A DNA stretch of 63,229 nucleotides, the filler included, from Klebsormidium nitens (taxonomy: Eukaryota; Plantae; Klebsormidiophyceae), in NCBI GenBank assembly GCA_000708835.1. It is 5 parts of 5 records of this genome, joined end to end, with 100 filler letters (N's around TTAATTAATTAA, not from the genome) between each part and the next. Parts side by side here need not be neighbours in the genome. Positions count along the whole stretch, not along the records: positions 59,972 to 63,229 come from DF238590.1; 4 more parts are not named here. One strand, written 5' to 3'. Made by a program: the position numbers and the translations under genes. Shown piece by piece: positions 3,501 through 63,229 of this stretch (position 1 is the first letter of the stretch; each line of letters opens with the position of its first letter). The notes beneath the pieces were generated by a model. It did not search any database. It was not told where the DNA came from and worked only from the letters and a program-made list of their open reading frames with translations.

Positions 3501-6500
3501 GAGGAAGGGCGTCGCAGACTTTCTTCAGGAGGTCACGTCTCGCAAAGACCAGGAGGTAGGGCGCACGTGTCCCTGGGATCAGTGGCTGACGTGGCATGCT
3601 GGTCGATAAATGATGTCCCGTCTTGCGAACCCCTTGAAAGATGCTGCCACAAAATGCGTTGCTTCTGCTTGAATAGCATAACAGTCTTACAAGTCTTTGT
3701 TCGTTGCTGAGAAAGACCGACGAAGCTAGCTACGAAGCTTCGGCACATGTTTGCTACATTGTCTACTGCAAGCATCTTACAAAGCCTGTTGACATCCACG
3801 AAACGTCTTCTGACTTTGACCACTGTTCCCTGTCTGCAGCAATACTGGGCACGTGACACCCCGTACACATACGTGCCCGTGTCCTCCTTTGCGGATGCTT
3901 TCGACGACTTCGAGGTTGGCCGGCTCATCCGCAAGGAGCTATCTCAGCCGTTCGATAAGGCGCGCTCGCTGCCCGGGGCCCTTGTCCCGAGCAAGGCAGG
4001 TCGCGACTTCGAGTGGGGAATCTTCAGGGCGTGCTTAGACCGGGAGTGGACTCTCATGAAGCGGAACAGCTTCCTGTACATCGTCAAGACGGTCCAGGTA
4101 ATGGTTGTTCTTTTATCTAGCCTACTTCGCGAGCATTTGAAGCTTTTTTGGCGACGGGGACTATGTCGGCAAATTGTGTTGACCATGCTTGTGCTACCTA
4201 CGAGCATTTAATAAGGCATTTGCAAGTTCAGCTTTTCAGCGTCTTTGAGTAGAAAGAAGGGAACCTGTTTGGACCCGTCCTGCGCTTCTGACTGTCCACT
4301 TGCGTGGATGCAAGGTACTGAAATAGAAGTGGAGACTTGAGGGGCTCTGCTCCGACAACAAGTTCAATAGAAGCCCAGAGGGGCCCAAAGGATGCCCCTC
4401 ACAAAAAGCTGTGATTGAAGCCAAGAGCCGAGGCTCAGCGTTGAGGCTCTCCTCTTACATGCAGTGTGCGCTTTTGGCGATCATAAGTGCGACCGTTTTC
4501 CTTCGCACGACGCTCAATTCGGACAGCATCGCGGACGGCTCGCTGTACCTGAGCATGATCTTCTTCTCCCTGGTCTACATCATGTTCAACAGCTACGCAG
4601 AAATATCACTAACGGTGAGGACAAGCCTGTGGTTGTCAAGCGTGGAGGATTTGGAGCCGAGTGTTCCAATCTTTATAGTCTGCATACTGTTCATGAATCG
4701 ATTCTTGGAATGACAGGTCCAAATGTACGGTCGTAAGTAGGCTGTTTTTGAGCACTTATCCTGGCCGTTTTGGATCTTGACAATTTAACGTTTCTCAGGA
4801 AGGAGCCGCTGGATTCCTAAGGGCTTGAAAATTAATTTGAAGAGCTTCATTTAGCAAGGATATCGCTATATCAGATCTTCCTTTGCAACCCGACCCTTGA
4901 TCTTGCCACCATACGTGGCCCAGTCACGGGGGCTGAAACACTGCTCGCCCCGCCATTTCCCGTCCACTTGTTCTCCATTAAGGCGGCCTCCATCCACGTC
5001 AGTCGCCGGCGTGCCCTCAAATCGGAAGCATATTTTGTCATCTCCGCCTCCTTCAATGCAAATAATGAAGTTGCAAGCTCCCGTTCCTCGCAGGTGCACC
5101 GGCTGCCCATCTTTTTCAAGCAGCGCGAGGACCAGTTCTACCCAGCGTGGGCCTTCAACCTGCCGTCAATCATCACACGGCTGCCCTACACCCTGGTCGA
5201 GGTTCTCATCTGGACCGCCCTCACGTATTACATCGTCGGCCTTGCGCCAGATGCTGGCAGGTACGTCGTAAGCTGCCTTGTCTTCCTGTTTCAGTCCGAT
5301 TGCTAGTAAGTTTAAAAAGTGTCACAGAATAACACGCGAAAGCTGTTGGAGCTGCTCCATTACAATTCTACAGCTCTTGTGCTCGCTTTTCAACGACACT
5401 CTTGTCACTTCTGGCTCCAGAGACATTGCCTGCAGGTTTTGAAGCCGGTTCTGTCAGTTGAAAAGAAAGAAGGATGCGGCAGTTCTCTGTGCATCAAGTG
5501 TTTACCCGCAGCTTTTCAAAGAGTCGAGCCGTATTCATACCTGCCTGGTGTTGCTGAAAGACCAGGCCGACTATTGAGTCGTGCAGCACTATCCGTGCCA
5601 CAAAGCTTTCCCTTGCGGCGGCGCGGCGAGCCATGCTACTTTCAATTCCAGCCCGCTGCCTGAAAAGGATTGTCAGTCTTATCAATCTAATGCGCGTCAG
5701 AGTCGTAGCAACCTGATGCGCGTCAGAGTCTTATACCTGATGCGCGTCAGAGTCTTCGCAACCTGAGTCTTATAAGGTTTTCTCACGTGCCCGTCCGCAG
5801 GTTCTTCACTTACTTTTTGATCCTGCTCGCTCTGCACCAAATGGGTGTGGCTCTCTTCCGGCTCGTGGGCGTGCTCGCGCGCACCATGACCATGGCCAAC
5901 ACCGCCGGTTCCTTTGCGCTTATGTGCATCTTCCTGCTTGGAGGCTTCGTCATCGCCAAGCGTAAGCGCTTCGCTTTGCTTCTTCACACGTGCCTTGCTA
6001 GATCCCCTGACGTCATGTCGTCATTACTGATGTGGCTGTCGTGTCCAGAAGACTGCCTACCTCCCTTTCGCACTCAACCCACTTCAAATTAACAGCCGTT
6101 CAACAATTTGAAAATGAGCAGAATGCGCCGTGTCTGAAATCAACAACAATGAGTTACGTGTGCAACTTGCGGCCCGTAGACCTGTCAAGATTGCCGTCGA
6201 ATGACCTGTTAAGCTGGCTAAGTCCAACGGCACTTGACAAGAAGTCTCTCTCGTTGTTTGCAATGGAAGTCACCTCCCTTATAGGATGGTTGTCTGAGCG
6301 GTTGAAAGTAACGGTCTTGAAAACCGGCGTGGTTCTTCGTTCAAAACAAACTCTCTCGCGGTTTGCAATGAAAGTTACCTCCGCTTATAGGATGGGCGTC
6401 TGAGCGGTTGGAAATACCGGTCAAAAAAATCGGCGTGGTTCTTCGTTCTAAGCGATCTCGGTTTCTCATGCAGCGCAAATCCACCCGTGGTGGATCTGGG

Positions 6501-12928: not shown

Positions 12929-12987
12929 GAACGAGAAGTCCGTCAGGTGTGGAGGGGAGAGCGTATTTATAGGGGTAGCTTTTAGAC

Positions 12988-13250
12988 GCCCATCGTCCGC
13001 ACACCTTGATCATTAGAGGCACGTCGTCCGCAACGGTGTTCATTGAGAAACCCGTCGTCCGCCAAAGGTAGTTTTCTACAAACACGTCGTCCGCAGAATG
13101 TAGCTATTGACAAACCCGTCGTCCGCGAAAGATAGTTTTTGACAAACCCGTCGTCCGCAAAAGGTAGTTAGCGAGAAACCCGTCGTTTGCAGAGTTGATT
13201 ATTGAGAAGCGGTCGTCCGCAGAGGTAGTCACGGTATAGAAGCCCGCCGC
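12988..13250. repeat. About 32-bp minisatellite, 8-9 degenerate units, downstream of the PDR stop
   Basis: Core CGTCGTCCGC (or variant) starts at 12991, 13022, 13053, 13085, 13117, 13149, 13181 and 13211. Confidence 0.85.
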
Positions 13251-28037: not shown

Positions 28038-28137
28038 NNNNNNNNNNNNNNNNNNNNNNNNNNNNNNNNNNNNNNNNNNNNTTAATTAATTAANNNNNNN
28101 NNNNNNNNNNNNNNNNNNNNNNNNNNNNNNNNNNNNN
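28038..28137. other. Assembly gap (100 nt) with TTAATTAATTAA linker
   Basis: N run with central linker. Confidence 0.98.
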
Positions 28138-39269: not shown

Positions 39270-42200
39270 TCAAGGCACCCCCCATCTCGCAAACGAGGGG
39301 GGGCCGCTCGCCAGCTTGGTCCCTGCGGAAGTCTGCCCCCCCGGTGCGGGGAGGCGCAGCGCCCGGCATACGTCGTTGCACTTGTGCGAGTTGAAGAAGA
39401 GGCCGAAGCCCTGCTTCCCCAGGTTGGTCCGGCTGAACCGCAGGACGTCCGTACAGTGGATCGCCGGGTCGCTCAGCAAGAACACCGGCTGCCCGTCCGG
39501 GCCCGAAGTGCGGACGCCCTGAAAGGAAAGCACTAGGAGAGATTCATGAGGCGTCTCCTCGTGATATATCCGACCCGGGTGCTATTCAGAGTGCTTGGTT
39601 GGGATTTGCTCTTGTTCCAAAGGGATCGCCGACTTTCGACCGTTCGAGTGAGCGAGACACCTTCACCGCCCTGGGCAGAAGGGGCAAAGTGCGCATTTCC
39701 GGAGCGAACGGTGGTAGTCTTCGTCCACTGATGGAGCAACGGTTTTTGCACGCAAAGAGTGCATTTTTAGCGAATGTCCATGCCAACTCTGAAGGACTCG
39801 AAGTTGGACCAAGGACGGGCAGAGAGTCTGGCGAGAACCTTAATTTATCATAGGCTTTCTCGTATGTGAATCTGATCGTGAACACTGTATACGCAGAGGG
39901 TAGTATATGTCCGTAACGACCTTCGGCTGGAGACAAACTGGCTGGGAACTTTCGTGCAGGGCGCTGATCCTCAGCCCCTTCGCCTTCATCTTTCCAAAAT
40001 GTATAGAACTGAGAGCCAAGAACAAGTCCCAGAACACATGAAAGTCAAGAAAAATAATAGTAAGCCCAGATAATAGTAAGGTAACCGCACTGTGACGGGT
40101 AGGGTTAGTATAGTGGTCAGGGTGGGTACGGCTGCGGAGCGGGTATTTCATTTAAGGTTGGGATTTTTAGTGTTAGTCGAGGCTTACTATTATCTTGGCT
40201 TACTATTACCTTGGCTTACTATTATCTTTCTTGAGAGTTATCCAGAACACAGCAGTTGACAGGAAGCTCGAGGATGGGTCTTACCTGCAGGTCGGTGACC
40301 ATAAGCAGGCCCCGGGACACGTGGAAGGTCCAGTGGGAGAACGCGTGGAGCGTTGCCCGGTACTCGGGCGTGTTCACGTAGCCCGCGTTGCTGCTATACT
40401 TGATCCAAGCCCCGGTCAGCAGCGGCTCCTTGGTGTAGTACTTCTTGCTGCAATATAGTAGATACGAGGAGCGTCGTTTGGAGATTCAGCTGCCGGGGCC
40501 TCACAACGTGAGACGACGTGCCAGAAAATCAATCGGGCTAGCTGCTTCTAAAGAAAGAAGCTTCGTTACGTTCCAGACTGTTCTGGTCCAGGAGTCTATG
40601 TTGTGATGGAACAAACCTTTCTTGAAAAATGGTTGCCATCAAACAGATCGTGCGTCCGGGACATTCAGGGATTCTCACTGACTTTCTTCTTGCACATTGG
40701 CCTTGATTTGCTGACGTTTGAGCGCTGCAACACGACCGGCATCCCACGAATGCACAGCAATGATTGGAAAACGATTGGCGAAGATCAAATGGGAGCCCTG
40801 TCCTTCTTTTCTGGCTGGAAACTGGTCGCAATCTGTTTAGTGATTGGATACGCTTCTTCGAACCAACTGACCATTACTTCATCCTTGGCAGAATTTACTT
40901 TGAGGGCATCCTAAACGTCGCACGGGAGATTCTCCCCCGCCCTCACCTGCCGCCGTGTTCCACCTCGAGCATCGTCACCTCCGCAAAGGACACCTTCCGC
41001 GGAAAGCGGAGTTCCGCGATCCGCGCCGTGAATTCCGCCGCCAGCTGCGCCGACACCGTCTGTATCTCCATCTGCTGCAGATACCGCTCCCTGGAGTGAG
41101 TCCGTGCTGGGCTGTCGCCGGACGGCTGCTTGAACCGCTTGACCACGAAGACGTCATCGCCCACGTCAGCACGTGTCCTGCTGACGTCAGCGCTCACGGC
41201 GTAGTACGGCCAGCGCATGGCGCCGTCGTTCGAGAACGGGTTCGGGCCGAACTTGAGGGTCGCGGTTCGGACGGGCTCCGTCTCGAAGAGCTCGCGATCG
41301 ATGATTCGCTGAAAAGTCGCCTCCAGAGAGCTTTCTTGTCTGCAGAATGAAAGATACGGTCATGATTATCGGGGGACCGCTTGAAAAATCTGGGCAAAAC
41401 AGATCTTCGACGGTAAAATTTCTGGGCAAACCAGGTTGTCGATGATGAAAGGCAGGCATGATGCGGGGTGAGAAATCATTCATTGCGCTCCAGATTGCTT
41501 TCGAAAGCAATAACCAGAAAACTTTGCAACCGCGGAGTTTGGACCGAAGCGTTCCGACTTGCTTTTGTATACGGTAAAATCTGAGCCGAGAAACTCATTT
41601 GTGTGTCGAGGTGCAACCGGAGAATGCACTCCGAAATATCTCCCGGTCAATCTTCTCCCCCGGCCAGACCTCACTTGTACTTCAGCTCCCGCGCAGCGTA
41701 GCTCCGGTGCAAGAACCCCCAGTTGGGCACTCGGGAGACCACCACCTCCGGCACAAACTTTGGCGCCGGCCCGCCCCTCCCGACTGTCGATAGCGTCTTG
41801 CTGATCGTCTCCCGGGACAGAAGCACCACCTTATGGACTATGCTCTGCAGGTGTGAAAAAGTCTCGTCCTGGAGCCAGTCCTCCCCGGGGGATCCCCCCG
41901 GCCCGTCCGCCAGGCGCTTGAAAACGGCCACCATCTGCTGGGTCGTGTCGTTGAGGTGGCAGAAGAAGTAGGTGGACACGTGGCAGTCGGCGCGGAGGGT
42001 TTGCAGGAGCGCGGCCGCGCTCCGGCCGCGCGTGTCGCCGCCCGGGTAGTTGTCGGACAGTCCGGAGTGGAAGTCGGTGCCGTGGCAGGGGGCGTCCGCA
42101 ATGTGAACCAAAAGGCGGCCTGCAGGGAGAGAACAAAAGCATATATTTGTTCTATTTAAGTCGTTTTAAAGAGAAGAATGCAATCTACTTCGCACTCGGT

Positions 42201-54143: not shown

Positions 54144-54834
54144 TTTGCGGCGTTGCCGGAAATCCGTTACGGGATAGCGACGCAATGTCTACTGAGTGAG
54201 CGCTCTGCGGTTGCGAAGGGGGTTACCCAACGCGGGTCAGTCTCTCGAAGGACTTTACCCCCGACTTACGAACTGATCAGTTCCCTGGAAGTCCGGAAGC
54301 TCGTCCTACTGAGCCTGATAACCCGCTAGGTTGATAACCCGCCAGGTCACCGATACTGACCAACATCCTAGTTGATCCTCAAACCCCTTGATTTCTTGTA
54401 TTTAAAGACGGGCAACTTCATCGAAAAGTCTTGTGGGTCCACTTGGATTTCGACCGTCGTTAAATTGTTCCGTCTCGGTTCCGTCTGGGTTCCGTCTGGG
54501 TTCCGTTTACGTTTCATTCCAAAAAGGAATTGGGCTCAGATCGTCCCGCTTGAGAGTGCGAGTGGTGGCTAGCAACGTCAAGCTGCCATTGCCAATTATC
54601 TTCTTTGCCCGTGCTGACTACGAAGCACCAGTGCAAATATATAAAGATAGCTTTCTGACTTCTGTGACACTGTGGGTCTGAAAAACACAGCAGAGAAGCC
54701 CACCTGATCATGACACGTGGCAGATCAACGGTGGTAGGCAGCTCGTAGAAGGTCGGCGGAACGGCTGACGCGGCCGCGCGAACTTCGTAGTCACAGATTC
54801 TGCAAAACTTTGAACAATAATTCTGTCAAAAAAA

Positions 54835-55508
54835 NNNNNNNNNNNNNNNNNNNNNNNNNNNNNNNNNNNNNNNNNNNNNNNNNNNNNNNNNNNNNNNNNN
54901 NNNNNNNNNNNNNNNNNNNNNNNNNNNNNNNNNNNNNNNNNNNNNNNNNNNNNNNNNNNNNNNNNNNNNNNNNNNNNNNNNNNNNNNNNNNNNNNNNNNN
55001 NNNNNNNNNNNNNNNNNNNNNNNNNNNNNNNNNNNNNNNNNNNNNNNNNNNNNNNNNNNNNNNNNNNNNNNNNNNNNNNNNNNNNNNNNNNNNNNNNNNN
55101 NNNNNNNNNNNNNNNNNNNNNNNNNNNNNNNNNNNNNNNNNNNNNNNNNNNNNNNNNNNNNNNNNNNNNNNNNNNNNNNNNNNNNNNNNNNNNNNNNNNN
55201 NNNNNNNNNNNNNNNNNNNNNNNNNNNNNNNNNNNNNNNNNNNNNNNNNNNNNNNNNNNNNNNNNNNNNNNNNNNNNNNNNNNNNNNNNNNNNNNNNNNN
55301 NNNNNNNNNNNNNNNNNNNNNNNNNNNNNNNNNNNNNNNNNNNNNNNNNNNNNNNNNNNNNNNNNNNNNNNNNNNNNNNNNNNNNNNNNNNNNNNNNNNN
55401 NNNNNNNNNNNNNNNNNNNNNNNNNNNNNNNNNNNNNNNNNNNNNNNNNNNNNNNNNNNNNNNNNNNNNNNNNNNNNNNNNNNNNNNNNNNNNNNNNNNN
55501 NNNNNNNN
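54835..55508. other. Assembly gap (674 N)
   Basis: N run. Confidence 0.98.
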
Positions 55509-56617
55509 CCTTACAAACTGACCTGGTGACAACCTTCTGCTTCGGCTTCTTAGCCTCAAGAGGCTTCGCCTGAGCTTGGGCGGGCTCGGGTACACCTTTC
55601 CGAAACTTACCCACATAAACCCAATACTCTTCGAGAATATCCTTACAGTTAGTAAGGTTCTTCTCTGGTTCCCAGGTATTGTGCTCGGGCCCATACCCTA
55701 ACCATTTGACCAGGAACTCTGTCTTGGTGCCTTTTCCGCGTTTACCTGTGGGGTTATCGAGTGTTCTTTCGACCTCATACTCTAATGAGTCATCGATTTC
55801 GATGGGTGGTGGAGGCGGCTGCACTCTGCCATTATTTCTGTAGGGCTTCACAAGATCAACGTGAAACACGTTATGCATCTTGAGATTTGGTGGAAGCTTC
55901 AACTTATACGCGACCTTGCCCACCGGTTCGATCACTTCGAACGGTCCTACCCACTTGGGCAGAAGCTTGCGAGTCCCTGGATTTGCGAGCTTAAAATTTT
56001 GCGTTGAGAGGAGAACCTTCTTCCCCTTCGCGAAAGAGACGTCTCGTCTCTTCTGATCAGCAAAAGACTTCATACGCGACTTGTGCTGCCAAGATACTTT
56101 GTTTTGCTCGCGCGATACTCATATCCATCTGACGCAAAAAGTCAATGGGGGACCCGAGTTTCCCTGCCCCCATCAAGAGGTGTACGTGGGTGCTGACCAG
56201 TATTTAACATAAACGGGGTTTCTTTAACCGATTCTTGCCAAGCATTGTTCACACTGAACTCTGCAAGATACAGCCACTCATCCCAATCGTCCTGCTGAGG
56301 ACTGGTGTAGTGACGCATGAAATCCTCTAGGATACGGTTAGCCCGCTCAGTTTGTCCATCAGTCTGAGGGTGGAACGGTGTGCTCATCTTTAACTGCGTT
56401 CCTAGCAGCCGCGCTAGCTCAACCCAGAACTTGCTTGTAAACCTCGGATCTCTATCCGAAACAAATTCTGCAGGAAGTCCGTGAAGTCTAAACACGTTAT
56501 GCGCGAACAGCTTCGCAACATCCGAGTCCTCAGCGGAGCATTTTGTGTGCGTGGGAGCAAAATGAACCATCTTGGTTAACCTGTCAACGAAAACCACAAT
56601 TGCATCATGACCACTCC
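55509..56617 (-). mobile_element. Chromovirus-type Ty3/Gypsy integrase with GPY/F region and C-terminal chromodomain, disrupted near 56140
   Basis: VFVDRLTKMVHF, FVSDRDPRFTSKFW, HPQTDGQTERANRILE; LLPKWVGPFEV, HNVFHV; EYEVERTLD..FLVKWLGYGPEHNTWEPEKNL. Confidence 0.92.
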
Positions 56618-56717
56618 NNNNNNNNNNNNNNNNNNNNNNNNNNNNNNNNNNNNNNNNNNNNTTAATTAATTAANNNNNNNNNNNNNNNNNNNNNNNNNNN
56701 NNNNNNNNNNNNNNNNN
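56618..56717. other. Assembly gap (100 nt) with TTAATTAATTAA linker
   Basis: N run with central linker. Confidence 0.98.
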
Positions 56718-56734
56718 GCGACAAGTGCTGGTTT

Positions 56735-57120
56735 GGGGGCCGCTATCAGATTGATGTAGAGCCCGCCGTCTCAAGTGATCTAGGAGCTGTTGTCAGGCTG
56801 GTTGCAAGGCATGCCGTTGGATCTCTGTCAGCTGAATTGGGGCGCTGTCGATTGGAGGCGGGGACCGCTGTTGGGACCCGCTGTCAGACAGATTGCGGGC
56901 CCGCTGTTGGGCTGATTCGGAGCCCACTCCTGGGGCTGCTTTGGAACCTCGATTTGAATCATTTGACGCCCGCTTCTGGGCTATCTTTCAAGCTCGCCAC
57001 AAAGCCAGTTGCCCCGTCGTGGGGCTGATTTGAATCGGTCTGTTTTGATGCCCCGCTGTTGGGTTGATCTGAAACCCGCTGTCAGGCTGATGGCGGGCCC
57101 GCCATAGAGCTGATCAGAAG
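56735..57120. repeat. Degenerate GC-rich tandem repeat with core CCGCTGT(T/C)(G/A)GG..GAT
   Basis: Repeated CCGCTGTTGGG / CCGCTGTCAG followed by CTGAT/TTGAT. Confidence 0.5.
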
Positions 57121-57277
57121 CTCCTTTGGGGGCTTCTTAAATTTGCCACTCTGGGCCTGCAGCGGGTGTCAACTTTCGCGTGGGCTGAATCCCAGGTACC
57201 TGTGCGGGTTCATTCGAAGGCTCCTATCAAAAGCTTAGACGGTATACAACTTTGAGAAGCTTTTGCTCACAGCCACA

Positions 57278-58855
57278 ATGAGCGCTGACTCGTCATCCAT
57301 CTGCCTTGAATTGCAGATCATGGAACTTGAGCTCTGGAAGAGAGACGGCGGCCGCTTCGTTTGCCTCGAACAGCATGCGAGCGAGGCAAGAAGCTGCGGC
57401 AAGCCTTTCGTGTCAAAGCAAGCTTTGGAAGGCCACCGGAAGCGGACGGGGTGTGAACCCTGGAAACTCCCAAGCAACCGCGCGCCCTCCAAGTATCACG
57501 GCCTGGGGCCAGAAGCTGCGAGTCGCCAGCTGAAGCGCCAAAGCAACAGGGCAGCCGTGTCCAAATACAGAACGACGCTCGACGGGGAGCGGGCCGTCCA
57601 TCGCGCGCGGCACATAGCCAACTACCGCCTAATGGCGCGTGATGCCGTGCCCGCTCCCCGGATGCCCAAAGCACCGGCTTACGTGCGGCCGCCTATCTCA
57701 TAGCTGATTGCCGATGCTGAGATTTATGTGCAGGATCTGAAGGAGAAATTCGATCTGGGAGAGATCGTGCTGAACCACGCGACGTGGTCCCTGCGATTCC
57801 ACCCAGATAAGGTTGAGGTGAGTCAACCCGTTTGCTACAGCTTCGACTTGGTTTTCGGGGTCACTCATGGCCGGCCTGCAAAACGTGTACATTCTTGTTG
57901 AATCAAGGTACATTGCCTGAAATTTTGGTCGATTGGTCAAAAATTCGTGTACATGCACCTTATCGGCCGCAGGACCTTTTGCAAGCAGAGGCAAATTTGA
58001 AAGCAACTGGTAGATTAATGTGAGGTTCCAATCTTGCTCCAAGTTGTGCTTGTCGGCATCGTTAAGGCAGGCCGTCTATCTGCACTTGTTAATTGAAGGT
58101 TGTCGATGTATAGGGTGCATGTGCAAATTGTCAGATCCAGGCTTCAAGCTCCAAGCGGTGCGCTTCGTGTTGAATTTGACCAAAGGTCAGGCCGAGTTTG
58201 GCAGTTAGAGTACATTTCTATCAATCAGCGTATAAAACTCATTACTGTAGCTGATCAGTTTACATTACTTTGTAACAAGAGAACATCACTCGATAATCTA
58301 ACTAGATTGGACAAAGAATCGTGTACATCATTCCTTAATGACTGCTGCATCATTTTGATTAAGGGAGGACTTGGGAACATCTTTGGCAATACGCGTACAT
58401 TTCCTCTCAATCGGAGTACATCATTCATCAATAGGTGTACATCATCACTTATTGACTGCGGCATCATTGTCAAGCAGGGGAGGAGTGGGGAGCACCTGCG
58501 GCAATTCATTGAGCACTTCACGGGCTCTCCAGATGGTCTGGAACAAGAGCAAGCAAAGAAGTGCTACGCTACGGAACTGTTTGCCCCACTCAACGAGGAG
58601 CGTTTCAAGCCCGGTCAAAGCGCTCAGAAAGCTGGTGGCATGTTGTGGAGAGCGTGGTTGTCGGTCGAATGTGCACTCATTGACGACTATGCAGAATATC
58701 TGGTCGAGTTTGAGGAATATATAGCAAAGGTGAAGCAAGCAAGCCGAGAGCTAGAACGGGCATGTGAGAGATGGATTCTTGAGAAGCTCGAGCAAAAGTT
58801 CGAGAAGTCAAAGGCATATAAGAGATACATATTGCACAATCAAACTACCGAGTAG
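57278..58855 (+). pseudogene. Spliced gene for a C2HC/C2H2-like zinc finger + HPD-motif (auxilin-type J-domain-like) protein, with a premature TAG
   Basis: ATG 57278; C-x10-C-x3-F-x5-L-x2-H-x5-C; in-frame TAG 57701-57703; the same frame continues to SLRFHPDKVE|GTGAGT (57817); phase-0 acceptor at 58477 then GRSGE..KKCYATELFAPLNE..; stop at 58855. Confidence 0.55.
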
Positions 58856-58875
58856 AAGCACTTCAACGGCTAGTA

Positions 58876-59833
58876 TGTGCAATGGTATACTGTGATTCTT
58901 TTGTGCACCGTATTGAACGATTCGAATGGATGCAATACTTGGTTTCCGCCCCCAATTGCGCTTACTGTAGCAGCCATCGAGATGGACAAAGCTGTGCTTA
59001 AAAGTGCTCGATCAAAAGTGCTCGATTAACGATTTTGAGATGCGGCTACCATGCATTTGGATCAGTGCCTTGAGACTATCTTGGATGTTGTAGCTTTGGG
59101 TGTATTCGAAACTTGCCGCCCCCCTTCGATGAAGTCAGCAGCCATTCCCCGCACTTTCACATATGATCGATGGCGCGAAGGTGTCCAAGTGTCCGACGTT
59201 TTGATGAGCGTTTTTGAGTCGACCCCCTTGGATGACGTCAGCAGCCATTCTCTGCACTCTCGCTTGTAATAGATGGCGCAAACGTGTCCGAGTGTCCGAG
59301 TTTTCAATGAATGTTTTCACGTCGACCGCTCTGATGACGTCAGCAAAACTCCCACCAACCATTCACTATGATTGTCGGCGCAAAGGTGATCGAGTGTCCC
59401 ACTTTTTAACACACCTTCTGTATATCCTTTCAGAATGTACGTCCTAGACTCAGCCTAGGACATACAGATTCTGATCGAAGATTATTGGTGGGGATGGCTG
59501 CTGACGTCATCAGAGGGGCCGCTCTCAAAAAGTACGTGAAAAACACGGACGCTGAGACAACTTTGCGCCAATGATTACAGATAATCGGTGGTATTGGTCG
59601 GTACATGCACATGATATCCGGCCATTCTATTCATTATTCAATCGGATAATTTGGTGGAATGACTGTTGACGTCATCAAGCTCATCAAGCACTTAGCGGCC
59701 GGCTGTGTGCAATGATATCTTGTGATTCTTTTGTGCGCCGTATTCAACGATTTGAATGGATGCAATTTTAGGCTTTCGTCCTCCGACTACGTTTGCAATC
59801 GAGCAGATGGACCGAGCGGTTCTTCAAAGTGCT
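58876..59833. repeat. Composite repeat: about 130-bp direct repeats flanking an imperfect palindrome built from about 103-bp TGACGTCA-containing units
   Basis: Direct repeats 58876-59008 and 59706-59833; forward units at 59128, 59231, 59333; inverted units near 59491-59600 and 59657-59679; central hairpin GTCCTAG-N7-CTAGGAC at 59441-59461. Confidence 0.75.
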
Positions 59834-59871
59834 AGAACCGCAATAGTATGATCGTTCAAAGAATTTGGTTT

Positions 59872-59971
59872 NNNNNNNNNNNNNNNNNNNNNNNNNNNNN
59901 NNNNNNNNNNNNNNNTTAATTAATTAANNNNNNNNNNNNNNNNNNNNNNNNNNNNNNNNNNNNNNNNNNNN
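59872..59971. other. Assembly gap (100 nt) with TTAATTAATTAA linker
   Basis: N run with central linker. Confidence 0.98.
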
Positions 59972-60014
59972 TGCGTTTATTTCACACGATTTTTCTCTTG
60001 CGTTACACAAGGAC

Positions 60015-62824
60015 ATGTCTTCAACAGGCATGGGAGTGGCCAGCGTCCATGAGACTAAGGCCCTAGGACCTAGGAGCATCAGAGCCGAGATCATGCGCCT
60101 TCACAATGTAGGCATGTATGCAATTCCAGTGAAACTGGTTTGGGACCCGAAAAAGGGTAAGAAGGATCCAAAATTTCCCCATACTTGGCGTCAGATGATC
60201 GATCCAAAGTCGTGGAGAGAATCAATAGAAACAGCTCTCTTGCAACGGCCCGATGCCAACGGGCTTGCGATCTTGACCGGTACGAGTGGACTATTTGCAA
60301 TCGATGTTGACAATGATTCTAACAATCCCAAGAAGCTTCCCGGAACTGAACTCTGGAATCGCTTGATCGATGCTCACGGCGAACCGAAGACCCTGAAGGC
60401 CCGCACTGCTTCAGGAGGGTTTCACTACGTATTCAAGGCTTGCAGCCCTGAATTATTCTCTCGGAAGAACTTCTCAACCGTGAAGGTTGGCAAAGACATC
60501 TGGGGGATAGATGGCCGATCCCTTGGTGGATGTATATTTGCAGAGCCAACAACCTACGTAAAAGAAGGGCAGGTTGTGGCCTACGAGTGGTTGAACGGTC
60601 CTCCAAGCTATGATGCATGCAAGGAGGTGCCAGGATGGCTCGCGAAGGTGGTTCAGAATCACGCTGGTGACGCCATGTCAGCCGAGAATCCAATGAACGA
60701 TACCAAGCTTTCCATGATATGCGCTCAAAGTGACGATTCAAGTACGATACCCAACAGCGAGGCCCGAAGTTCACGTGGGGAGTCAACTTTCGACGGATTG
60801 TCGAGTGACAAATCACTGCTGTTGGCCGAGTTGTCTAAGCTATTGAAGGAGAAAGCAAACGATACGACCAGCACGTATGCCAACTCGTTGCCCCATGGCT
60901 TATACGGCACTTACTATTGCTATCGAACTAGAGGCCCTCGCAAGTGCTACCTGGGGCACCAGCACAACGGAAGCAACAACTTTAATCTTTTAAAACGGGA
61001 ACGCAACGTGTGGTACCGTTGTCACGGCCAAGAGTGCTCTCACAAGCCTCCAAAGAAACAAGGTGAGCTGAAACTCAAAGCTGCTTTGCAAGATGCCTCG
61101 ACATTCCCTGTCAATCATCACGACGATATGCGTGTCATTACACAATTTACGCGCGGGACCCAGGAAGTACAAGAGTTGCTTCTTCGCATTGTTGTCGAGC
61201 ATGCAGCACCCCAAGCTTACGCCAATCTGGGCCGGCTTTTTGCATACATCTACATGATTGAAGGACGTCTTCTTGCAACGCGCAACAACGCCGAGAAGAA
61301 TAAGGATATCTACTTCTATGTATGGAACGGCTCCTCTTGGACGCCAGACTCGTCCAACCTGGTTGCCAGCGTGTTTACCTCACAGATGGGTTGCCTTTTG
61401 GCATGGTATGAGGTGCAACGAGACAGTTGCTTGGCAAACCTACGAGCAAAGCACCCTCATCTGGAAGGGATTTCGACCGAGGGGGAAGGTGCACGAAAAA
61501 GTCTTCTAAAGAGAGCAGACTGGCTAAGTTGGCCGAGCAATCGTGCCTAGAGGAACGAGATCGGAAGATGCCAAGCTTTGGAAGGATCAACGTGCAGGAC
61601 ATTGGAGATGTGCGGAAATGCTTGCACTCGGCTGTAACCGAGTTGTATGTTGACAACCTCATGGATCTATTCGATCAGGAGAATCACGTCGCAAACGCAC
61701 CAAATGGATTGATCGACCTTCAAACGGGTGATCTCTCAACTCATCACCCTCAAGATCTCTGCAACAACAGCACAACTCTGTACGTGAAGGGCGCATCCAA
61801 AAGCGCAACGGCACGGTTCCGGACCTTTCTGATGGACGTCCTTCCATCCGAAGCCATCGGCTGGATGCAGATGTTTCTGGGATATTGCCTCACCGGAGAG
61901 ACGAGTGAGGAGCTCTTCGTGATCATGAACGGGGAAGGGGCAAACGGTAAAAGCGTATTGAAACAGGCATTGCGCAAGGCGTTTGGAAACTATAGTGCGG
62001 TTGGAAACAAGGCTATTTTCATCAAGCCTTCCTTTAGGGCCGACGCGTCTGCAGCTTCATCGCACTTGATTTACATCAAGTCCTCTCGTTTTGTGATAGG
62101 TGACGAAAGTGAGAAAGACAACCATCTCAACGACTCGTTCATAAAAGAGGCGAGCGGAGGCGGGGGAATCAACGCACGAGAGCTGTTTTGCAGGACGCAA
62201 GAGTATGTCCCGCGGTTCAAGCTGTGCTTGTTAACCAACTTCAGGCCCCGTTTTCCCTCTGACGATGTCGCCTTGATCCGCAGGATCGTGCTGATCATGT
62301 TCAACTATATTTTTAAGGCTCCGGACGAGTTTGACGCTAGCAACAAATACCACAAGCCCATTGACTTGACTCTAAAGCCTTATTTCGAATCAGAGGAAGG
62401 AGCTGCCGATGTCCTGGACTTTTGCGTCGAAGGGGCGACGATGTATTACGCAAAGAAGAGAGAGTCGCCAACCTCAAAGGTACTCTCTCCCATTCCAGAG
62501 GCCTTTAGCGCTGCTGCTCGTGAATATGCAGAGGAGAATGACAAGTTGCAGATGTTTATTGATGAGTCGTGTATCACAGGCGTTTCATTTGCTGTCACAA
62601 AGGCCGACTTTGTCGAGCACTTCACGGCATTTTTATACGCCGGTGGGTACGACACGAGCTTGGCTGGCGACGGTCTGGGAAGGGCGATGGCCATTAAGGG
62701 CTTTTCCAAAACACCTCTGGATGGAAAGAAGAACAAGATGATCAAGATGCTCAATGGGAATGGGAGAAAGGGGGGATTCTTTGGTCTCCGTTTGAAGACG
62801 GAGGAGGAGATGCAGAAGGAGTAG
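60015..62824 (+). CDS. Intronless primase-helicase: bifunctional Prim-Pol (AEP) domain, UL52/PrimPol-like CHCC zinc finger, D5_N, SF3 helicase, C-terminal winged-helix-like region; about 936 aa if the single frameshift near 61500 is corrected
   Basis: GLAILTGTSGLFAIDVD, ARTASGGFHYVF, GIDGRSLGGCIFAEPT; KCYLGHQHNGSNNF..VWYRCHGQEC; FYVWNGSSW, NAPNGLIDLQTG; Walker A GEGANGKS, Walker B FVIGDE, motif C LCLLTN. Overlapping ORFs 60015-61550 and 61427-62824. Confidence 0.9.
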
Positions 62825-62847
62825 GCAACGGCTGGGAGATAGAGGGC

Positions 62848-63206
62848 GTGATACTTTTGATACCCAAATATGGACGTTTCAAAAATCGAGTATCAACGAC
62901 CAAAAGATGCTTCATTTAAACTTTTGAGGTGGCTTATGCGGCATGAAAGTCGAGGAGTCTCTTTGGAAAGGAGCAAAACGCAGAGAAACGGGGGGTCGTC
63001 TTCGACATGTTGCCTAGTTGTGAACAATAAAGTTTGATACTATTGATACTTGATACTCTGTAAGGTACTACATACATTTTTAAAAAAAAGGGTGTTGATA
63101 CACACGTATATATATATAGGTGTGCCTTCAAAAACAGTATCAATAGTATCAATCGTATCCGCCCAAATTGCTATCATATCGAACATGCATGTAAATCTTC
63201 TGATAC
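62848..63206. promoter_or_regulatory. Candidate replication origin: GATAC iteron clusters in opposed orientation around an AT-rich core
   Basis: 11 GATAC/GTATC copies in about 360 bp; perfect 17-bp inverted repeat 63034-63050 / 63136-63152; T5A8 and (TA)n core. The function is inferred. Confidence 0.55.
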
Positions 63207-63229
63207 GATGCAACTCCATTTGCAATAGA

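Follow-up and report, generated by a model that had tools for sequence, protein, structure and literature searches.

The repeats that directly follow a primase-helicase gene of Klebsormidium nitens probably constitute a replication origin of the SaPI/pRN1 type. By analogy with these systems, the origin would be used by a self-loading helicase and carried by an integrated Polinton-like element combining a recombinase with the primase-helicase. Such a design is well known from phages, where it is common; the novelty is its occurrence in what appears to be a eukaryotic nuclear element. The window, i.e. the whole stretch of DNA that was analysed, comprises 63,229 nucleotides, and the gene and its array lie at its end, behind a gap at 59872-59971.

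An array of opposed iterons behind the helicase stop codon

The array occupies positions 62849-63206 and its first iteron is found 25 bp 3′ of the helicase stop, which ends at 62824; the site is thus directly downstream of the primase-helicase, as the first-pass annotation had stated. A recount of the GATAC/GTATC pentamer gave the eleven copies in about 360 bp that had been claimed (62850-63206), seven on the plus strand (62850, 62859, 63036, 63045, 63052, 63097 and 63202) and four on the minus strand (62890, 63137, 63146 and 63155). Ten of them are exact TGATAC hexamers, the copy at 63155 being GGATAC. They are arranged as follows:

62849..62895, no strand: outer iteron group, with TGATAC on the plus strand at 62849 and 62858 (9-bp period) and an inverted copy at 62890
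63034..63056, plus strand: left inner set of three TGATAC with periods of 9 and 7, containing the left 17-bp arm
63057..63135, no strand: AT-rich spacer with T5A8, a lone TGATAC at 63096 and the hairpin 63101-63124; putative region of melting and priming
63136..63160, minus strand: right inner set of two TGATAC and one GGATAC with a 9-bp period, containing the right arm
63201..63206, plus strand: single outer copy, in the orientation opposite to that of the right set

The inner copies follow each other with a period of 9 bp, and once of 7 bp. The left set had been described as three TTGATAC; all three are present in the window sequence, but contigs of the runs X1, X3 and X5 have a C at 63050, so that the T in front of the TGATAC core is variable in the third left copy, while the core itself is retained. 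The opposing GTATCAA (twice) and GTATCC were found at 63137, 63146 and 63155. The two sets contain an inverted repeat (63034-63050 and 63136-63152) whose 17-bp arms are 100% complementary and 85 nt apart, and it encloses, as previously noted, the T5A8 tract (63077-63089) and a CACAC-(TA)n-GTGTG hairpin (63101-63124) with 11 of 12 possible pairs. Folded as single-stranded DNA, the region 63025-63165 has a z-score of −4.9 that was reached in 0/200 shuffles. The GC content of the spacer (63050-63136) is 0.30 compared to 0.50 in the upstream gene. No family was matched in an Rfam search of 56700-63229.

It could be argued that the region is AT-rich and that the word was picked with the sequence already in view, so that the copies merely cluster by chance in a 3′ region of this composition. 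GATAC occurred 0.83 times on average, in keeping with the single chance copy assumed earlier, and at most 6 times when the 405 bp 3′ of the stop were dinucleotide-shuffled (2000 replicates). When the choice of the best word is allowed for, the commonest hexamer never exceeded 6 copies as against 10 observed (0/2000), and the commonest heptamer never exceeded 5 as against 8 (0/2000); only the pentamer count of 11 was once attained (1/2000). A strict detector of opposed phased hexamer pairs returned a single site in the entire 63-kb window, the TGATAC array, while one of 30 shuffled windows gave a match. Chance clustering is refuted by these counts and we regard it as barely credible.

Gene and array are carried together by one 2587-nt contig of run X1. 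A 151-nt contig from a second organism (B, run X6) spans the stop as well as iterons one to three and ends short of the inner sets; its six listed differences spare all three iteron cores, for which a hand estimate gives a chance of ~0.36. Eukaryote-linked data on the array comprise the window locus and this contig of organism B. Runs X7 and X8 yielded no contig over 62380-63229, and X9 covered the coding sequence only.

A perfect 17-bp inverted repeat around some 85 bp would also be of a size typical for a MITE, and the window does contain other sets of opposed repeats (40024-40239 and 59117-59579). The arms could therefore be the termini of an unrelated non-autonomous transposon, a MITE or otherwise, inserted behind the gene. 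We consider this very improbable: at 80% likeness, the segment 62588-63229 was recovered in X1 as one unbroken contig and no further copy (contigs can drop records), no target-site duplication is present in the 9 bases flanking the arms at each side, and five additional copies of the word are located outside the arms, in a layout that recurs after helicase genes elsewhere. The TIR region of an unrelated MITE, which the first-pass annotation had named as one of the outcomes fatal to its proposal, is not supported by the single X1 contig and the flanking bases.

The primase-helicase gene and its predicted winged helix

The upstream gene comprises the following features:

60015..61550, plus strand: 5′ frame, with a Prim-Pol (AEP) domain at residues 36-208 (PF09250, E 1.5e-16; tblastn), then a Cys/His-rich linker region
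61427..62824, plus strand: 3′ frame, with D5_N, an SF3 helicase (Walker A GEGANGKS) and a C-terminal winged helix (PF08706, E 5.9e-8)
61484..61502, plus strand: frame break between the gene halves, near 61490 (tblastn frame switch)
62528..62821, plus strand: predicted winged-helix origin-binding domain, residues ~368-465 of the 3′ frame (AF2)
62822-62824, plus strand: stop codon of the 3′ frame

In tblastn alignments ten homologues follow frame 3 up to ~61484 and switch at about 61484-61502. Because all ten align across both the Prim-Pol and the helicase half while changing frame, we take the two halves as one gene with one frame break. The break is present as in the window in X1 and X3, and contigs of X5 have a short indel at this position (30 of 41.3 depth); copies therefore differ at the frame break. 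Since the gene is broken in the window copy, the origin would need an enzyme supplied by another copy. The 3′ frame matches PHROG primase/helicase families (E 1e-48) as well as profiles of ASFV C962R and poxvirus D5.

An AF2 model of the helicase half is poor overall (mean pLDDT 48) but confident at residues ~368-465, with winged-helix blocks of 69-89. This region aligns structurally with RFX5 (Z 7.8, rmsd 3.2, 79 residues aligned) and RFX (Z 6.7) and with the origin-binding domain of phage P4 (1ka8; Z 5.9, rmsd 3.5, 79 residues aligned), and other winged helices are also among the matches. The scores for RFX and P4 are moderate, below 8. Foldseek assigned probabilities of 0.99 and 0.97 to the RFX matches but E values of at least 0.1, and for the model of the whole helicase half it returned nothing at E ≤ 0.001. 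The C-terminus is thus predicted to be a winged helix of the RFX/P4 type, which agrees with the architecture of the D5 family. The RFX half-site is GTTRC/GYAAC, and a predicted RFX-like fold would be compatible with the TG-NN-AC form of the word in the array.

The layout recurs beside other helicase genes

The exact pattern TGATAC-N3-TGATAC-N(70-100)-GTATCA-N3-GTATCA matched 77 loci, 21 in IMG/VR and 56 in metagenomes, which were clustered into 54 distinct arrays. By our own tally, a primase/helicase ORF accompanies 35 of the 54 arrays; the array is situated at the 5′ end of the ORF in two cases and at, or within, its 3′ end in 33. Thirty of these ORFs were assigned by Prim-Pol, D5_N, VapE, DUF5906, Pox_D5 or helicase profiles and five by AAA_25 or DUF3987, which we take to be helicases as well. 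Of the remaining 19 arrays, two were borderline, and the other 17, many of which come from short contigs, had no assigned primase/helicase. When the viral arrays alone are considered, 13/14 are situated at a primase/helicase. In 49 of the 54 arrays the GC content of the spacer is below that of its own locus.

Several control patterns were searched. A 12-bp period gave 0 loci, the control hexamer CTAAGT gave a single locus, 10 nt past a D5 helicase ORF, and the reverse orientation gave five, three of them with a helicase. The control word TAGTCA turned out not to be neutral, as it matched 70 IMG/VR loci; a helicase ORF was found beside 4/6 representatives by Pfam and 7/70 loci by profile, many of these contigs ending at the array. 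By these results the layout and the 9-bp period, rather than the word itself, mark such sites. In prokaryote genomes the heptamer pattern gave four loci, one with a match to the single profile tried. Two hexamer pairs in opposition, each phased at 9 bp and separated by 70-100 bp, also work as a search pattern for origins and could be applied to collections of PLVs, virophages and endogenous elements.

The reverse test used nine cultured-phage homologues, one per group, taken from the 30 listed of 745 matches. At the stop codon the strict detector was positive in 1/9; opposed repeats could be discerned by eye in four more, and the four actinophages had none. The opposed-array layout is not universal after primase-helicase genes.

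Two side observations concern these collections. The TAGTCA/TGACTA loci (L022-L091) form a large origin family, located at the 5′ end of a D5 helicase in L022 and L080, and some of the contigs bear two arrays ~9-12 kb apart. The TGATAC arrays of L018 (5001-5119) and L021 have no primase-helicase in the DNA fetched and are accompanied instead by amidoligase and glutamine amidotransferase genes; it is possible that they are origins served in trans.

Copies, relatives and host

Identity to the ten closest proteins ranges from 38 to 74%. Five of them carry the name Klebsormidium nitens and lie on contigs between 6 and 171 kb, and the others come from Logan and JGI. At 66-74% identity, the nearest relatives include K. 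nitens proteins whose scaffolds measure 32, 93 and 171 kb. Many contigs of 80-95% identity are present in X1 and X3, and the gene therefore belongs to a multi-copy family. A quick tree of 59 rows placed it with its closest proteins in an 11-row clade (SH-aLRT 99), nested among environmental Prim-Pol/D5 proteins, with the phage rows apart (support 93-94, unstarred). The host DNA of gene and array is thus likely a green-algal (streptophyte) nuclear genome, the physical link across 59872-59971 being unproven.

The same gap, which separates the gene from the remaining window, leaves room for the contig to be a fragment of a prokaryotic phage or island scaffolded beside algal DNA, in which case the origin would be real but ordinary. 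Arrays found elsewhere are all on phage-like or prokaryotic contigs, and 745 phage records match the helicase, albeit at less than 60%. This explanation seems improbable to us in view of the closest K. nitens proteins being on large scaffolds, the well-supported clade apart from the phage rows and the many 80-95% copies in the same runs; in addition, the linked recombinase described below resembles Preplasmiviricota proteins.

Some contig-based observations on 59972-63229 weakly hint at two near-identical copies of gene and array. X1 and X3, derived from one sample, have different letters at 61367, 61419, 62173, 62268 and 62319, and in X5 about half of the letters are alternative at 61060, 62268 and 62972. 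The X5 differences over 59972-63229 resemble base conversion, as nearly all are C>T (88) or G>A (90) and no other change occurs more than 4 times; in one 141-nt contig 11/35 Cs are changed (9/18 CHH, 2/11 CG and 0/6 CHG). If the X5 library were of the bisulfite type, which is not on record, the element would be densely methylated.

A putative linked tyrosine recombinase and the type of element

The paralogues P0003 and P0008 have an N-terminal piece, fused by gene call, that derives from a separate ~350-aa recombinase-like family. The two subfamilies of this family align at a probability of 100, one with an R-K-HxxR-H-Y pattern, which we assume to be the tyrosine recombinase signature, and the other with R-K-LxK-H-Y. 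The modelled N-terminal fold resembles the core-binding domain of the Brujita integrase (Z 8.4) and Xer (Z 8.3), with helical non-relatives close behind, and the catalytic domain is poorly modelled. Language-model similarity to Preplasmiviricota clusters is 0.98, one of these clusters having 16% PF00589; the family went unrecognised by Pfam and PHROGs. Family members are also found on contigs of the same size as those of P0004, P0005 and P0006 (11479, 6906 and 12284). Together this suggests that a recombinase is linked to the primase-helicase in five of the ten homologues, for three of them from equal contig size only. The window itself contains no recombinase gene, and no capsid gene was found among its ORFs scanned; a recombinase gene may sit in the gap at 59872-59971. 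No locus was confirmed when the recombinase alignment or the distant Prim-Pol/D5 alignment served as queries, nor with the helicase query in viral contigs or the helicase alignment in metagenomes.

The element is most likely of the recombinase/primase-helicase, Polinton-like type. As far as the accessible text of the papers goes, PLVs often combine AEP/SF3 replicases with tyrosine recombinases (PMC4642659, PMC10120064, bioRxiv 10.64898/2026.10.13.758929), and neither "iteron" nor "origin of replication" occurs in the available part of the last of these. In the Tetraselmis S2x elements a D5 helicase-primase adjoins the recombinase, with reactivation by a giant virus, according to the part available (bioRxiv 10.1101/2025.10.09.676808); giant-virus genes are present in Klebsormidium according to the accessible portions of PMC5294986 and PMC11244446.

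The nearest eukaryotic model is the Polinton-like end module of recombinase and primase-helicase. In the available sections of Barth et al., the order recombinase, primase-helicase and inverted repeats is proposed as an end module of entomopoxvirus-associated PLVs, the repeats acting as attachment or recombination site and as origin (PMC11296320). By this precedent, the array might represent the end of the element, i.e. an attachment or terminal-repeat site of the tyrosine recombinase whose origin function would be absent or secondary. The window does stop only 23 bp past the last copy, and the X1 contig extends 278 unseen bases more. Core sites of tyrosine recombinases have a crossover spacer of 6-8 bp, which is far exceeded by the 85 nt observed here, and primase-helicase genes situated mid-genome in phages are followed by the identical word, period and spacer. 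We therefore consider a mere element end unlikely, while attachment-site and origin roles are mutually compatible.

Comparison with known origins

In the parts of PMC9371898 that are available, SaPI origins are described as lying immediately 3′ of rep, with 6-12 penta- or hexameric iterons opposed around an AT-rich centre, which bears out the comparison drawn in the first-pass annotation; the SaPI Reps are self-loading helicases that bind the iterons through a C-terminal winged helix. There is a close resemblance to SaPI5, whose iterons TGCAAC(C) with AA spacers have a 9-bp period; its outer copies are inverted and its AT-rich centre measures 102 bp. In the accessible text, cryo-EM places winged helices on successive iterons (bioRxiv 10.64898/2026.10.17.759575). 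Like PriRep5 of SaPI5, the Klebsormidium protein is a fused primase and SF3 helicase with a winged helix (here predicted) and has its origin directly 3′ of the gene. The likeness extends to ~11 opposed hexamers, the AT-rich centre, the 9-bp period, the inverted outer copies and the TG-NN-AC form of the word (TGCAAC in SaPI5, TGATAC here). The position of the iterons, their number within the 6-12 range, their opposition around an AT-rich centre and an SF3 helicase with a predicted winged helix all correspond to a SaPI-type rep-ori. In contrast to SaPIs and PICIs, the Klebsormidium element likely has a eukaryotic host and a PLV-type recombinase, ~210 bp separate the stop from the inner left set, and no genes for phage induction or packaging interference were seen at the locus. 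Membership of the PICI/SaPI class, that is, of bacterial-chromosome islands packaged by a helper phage, was rejected: the nearest relatives are algal and the window has a chromodomain retrotransposon and a CBM49 domain, the contig being separated from them by a gap and its host deduced indirectly.

With the archaeal plasmid pRN1 of Sulfolobus the element has in common the order of Prim-Pol, SF3 helicase and winged helix, a stem-loop soon after the gene and GTG/CAC in the loop; in the available text, ORF904 of pRN1 needs a ~100-bp stem-loop 54 bp past the gene and its primase starts at GTG, the motif being dispensable (PMC4234260). Here PF09250, SF3 and a predicted winged helix are followed by a 17-bp stem and an 85-nt loop, the pRN1-type design. 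Unlike this stem, which consists of iterons, the pRN1 origin is described without iterons in the accessible part of that paper.

The resemblance to phage P4 concerns the winged-helix origin-binding domain (Z 5.9), the D5_N/SF3 helicase and the direct and inverted iterons. P4 differs in needing a second site, crr, for its replication. P4 alpha has a Toprim primase, according to the available text of PMC4234260, while the Klebsormidium protein has a Prim-Pol domain, and membership of the P4 replicons was rejected for this reason.

As for the replicative end module of PLVs (PMC11296320) and the Tetraselmis TsV S2x elements, the order recombinase, primase-helicase and repeats is probably shared (in the paralogues), as is the nature of multi-copy elements integrated in a green-lineage genome. 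The available accounts of those elements propose or note terminal inverted repeats without describing iterons; the primase of the Klebsormidium element is a Prim-Pol (PF09250). Polinton-like viruses are insertions of 15-30 kb with terminal inverted repeats at their bounds. The Klebsormidium element is cut by the 59872-59971 gap and the window end, and no capsid gene, ATPase gene or terminal repeats were seen in the part covered.

A model for replication of the element

On the basis of the mechanisms of SaPI, SaPI5 and pRN1, binding, melting and priming can be envisaged for the Klebsormidium array. Hexamers of the primase-helicase would bind the two inner sets, as for SaPI PriRep5, P4 alpha and pRN1 ORF904, and the same analogies suggest that loading of a double hexamer would be followed by melting of 63057-63135. 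Priming would take place in the melted spacer, possibly at the GTG in the hairpin. Judging from the paralogues, an upstream tyrosine recombinase would excise and integrate a circular form.

The first-pass annotation had spoken of a satellite-style rep-ori cassette. The origin part of this proposal is sustained by the position, the opposed hexamers, the AT-rich centre, the predicted winged helix and the recurrence elsewhere, while "satellite-style" is unproven. A more speculative extension, to which we give limited credence, would be that streptophyte algae harbour a family of capsid-less "eukaryotic PICIs". These small nuclear elements would combine a tyrosine recombinase with a self-loading Prim-Pol/SF3 helicase and an iteron origin of the phage type; after excision they would replicate from this origin without depending on ORC/MCM licensing before inserting again, and they might travel with giant viruses or PLVs. 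If so, phages, elements of archaea and nuclear elements of eukaryotes would have one winged-helix/TG-NN-AC code in common.

How PLVs with a primase-helicase start replication has been only a matter of hypothesis, with terminal repeats as the origin, in the available part of PMC11296320. In our literature search we found no description of the Klebsormidium element or of a PLV iteron origin; supplements (the PMC10120064 data sets, Figure S5 of PMC5294986 and the repeat figures of PMC11296320) and subscription papers may bear on it. Publications joining iterons with Polintons had prokaryotic subjects only. The present locus provides a base-resolved SaPI-type candidate origin together with a 100-residue predicted binding domain in an alga of a culturable type, and the question of the PLV replication start therefore becomes directly testable.

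Other features of the window

At 40024-40239, three copies with a 16-bp period oppose two across ~100-118 bp (36-nt arms, 92%), with no helicase gene seen nearby; this set might mark the end of a transposon or represent an orphan origin. Just 5′ of the 59872 gap, at 59117-59579, a tandem repeat of 103 bp and inverted arms of 81 nt (74%) and 38 nt (82%) are built around TGACGTCA, alongside a 96-nt direct repeat at 58856 and 59686. The 59117-59579 repeats might be the end of the primase-helicase element or of another one. The N44-TTAATTAATTAA-N44 blocks at 28038, 46236, 56618 and 59872 were rejected as biological repeats, being scaffold-gap spacers.

On the minus strand, 54826-56597 holds what is left of a chromodomain retrotransposon of the Ty3/Gypsy type (rve, SH3, chromo), which precedes the element by 3.4 kb; the window also encodes the CBM49 domain. 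Between the retrotransposon and the gap are two open frames without a family, 57263-57703, with a weak C2H2 finger (E 0.006), and 58100-58855. Tandem arrays resembling transposon ends are present at 12982-13186 (32 bp), 5675-5766 (26 bp) and 6246-6459 (106 bp).
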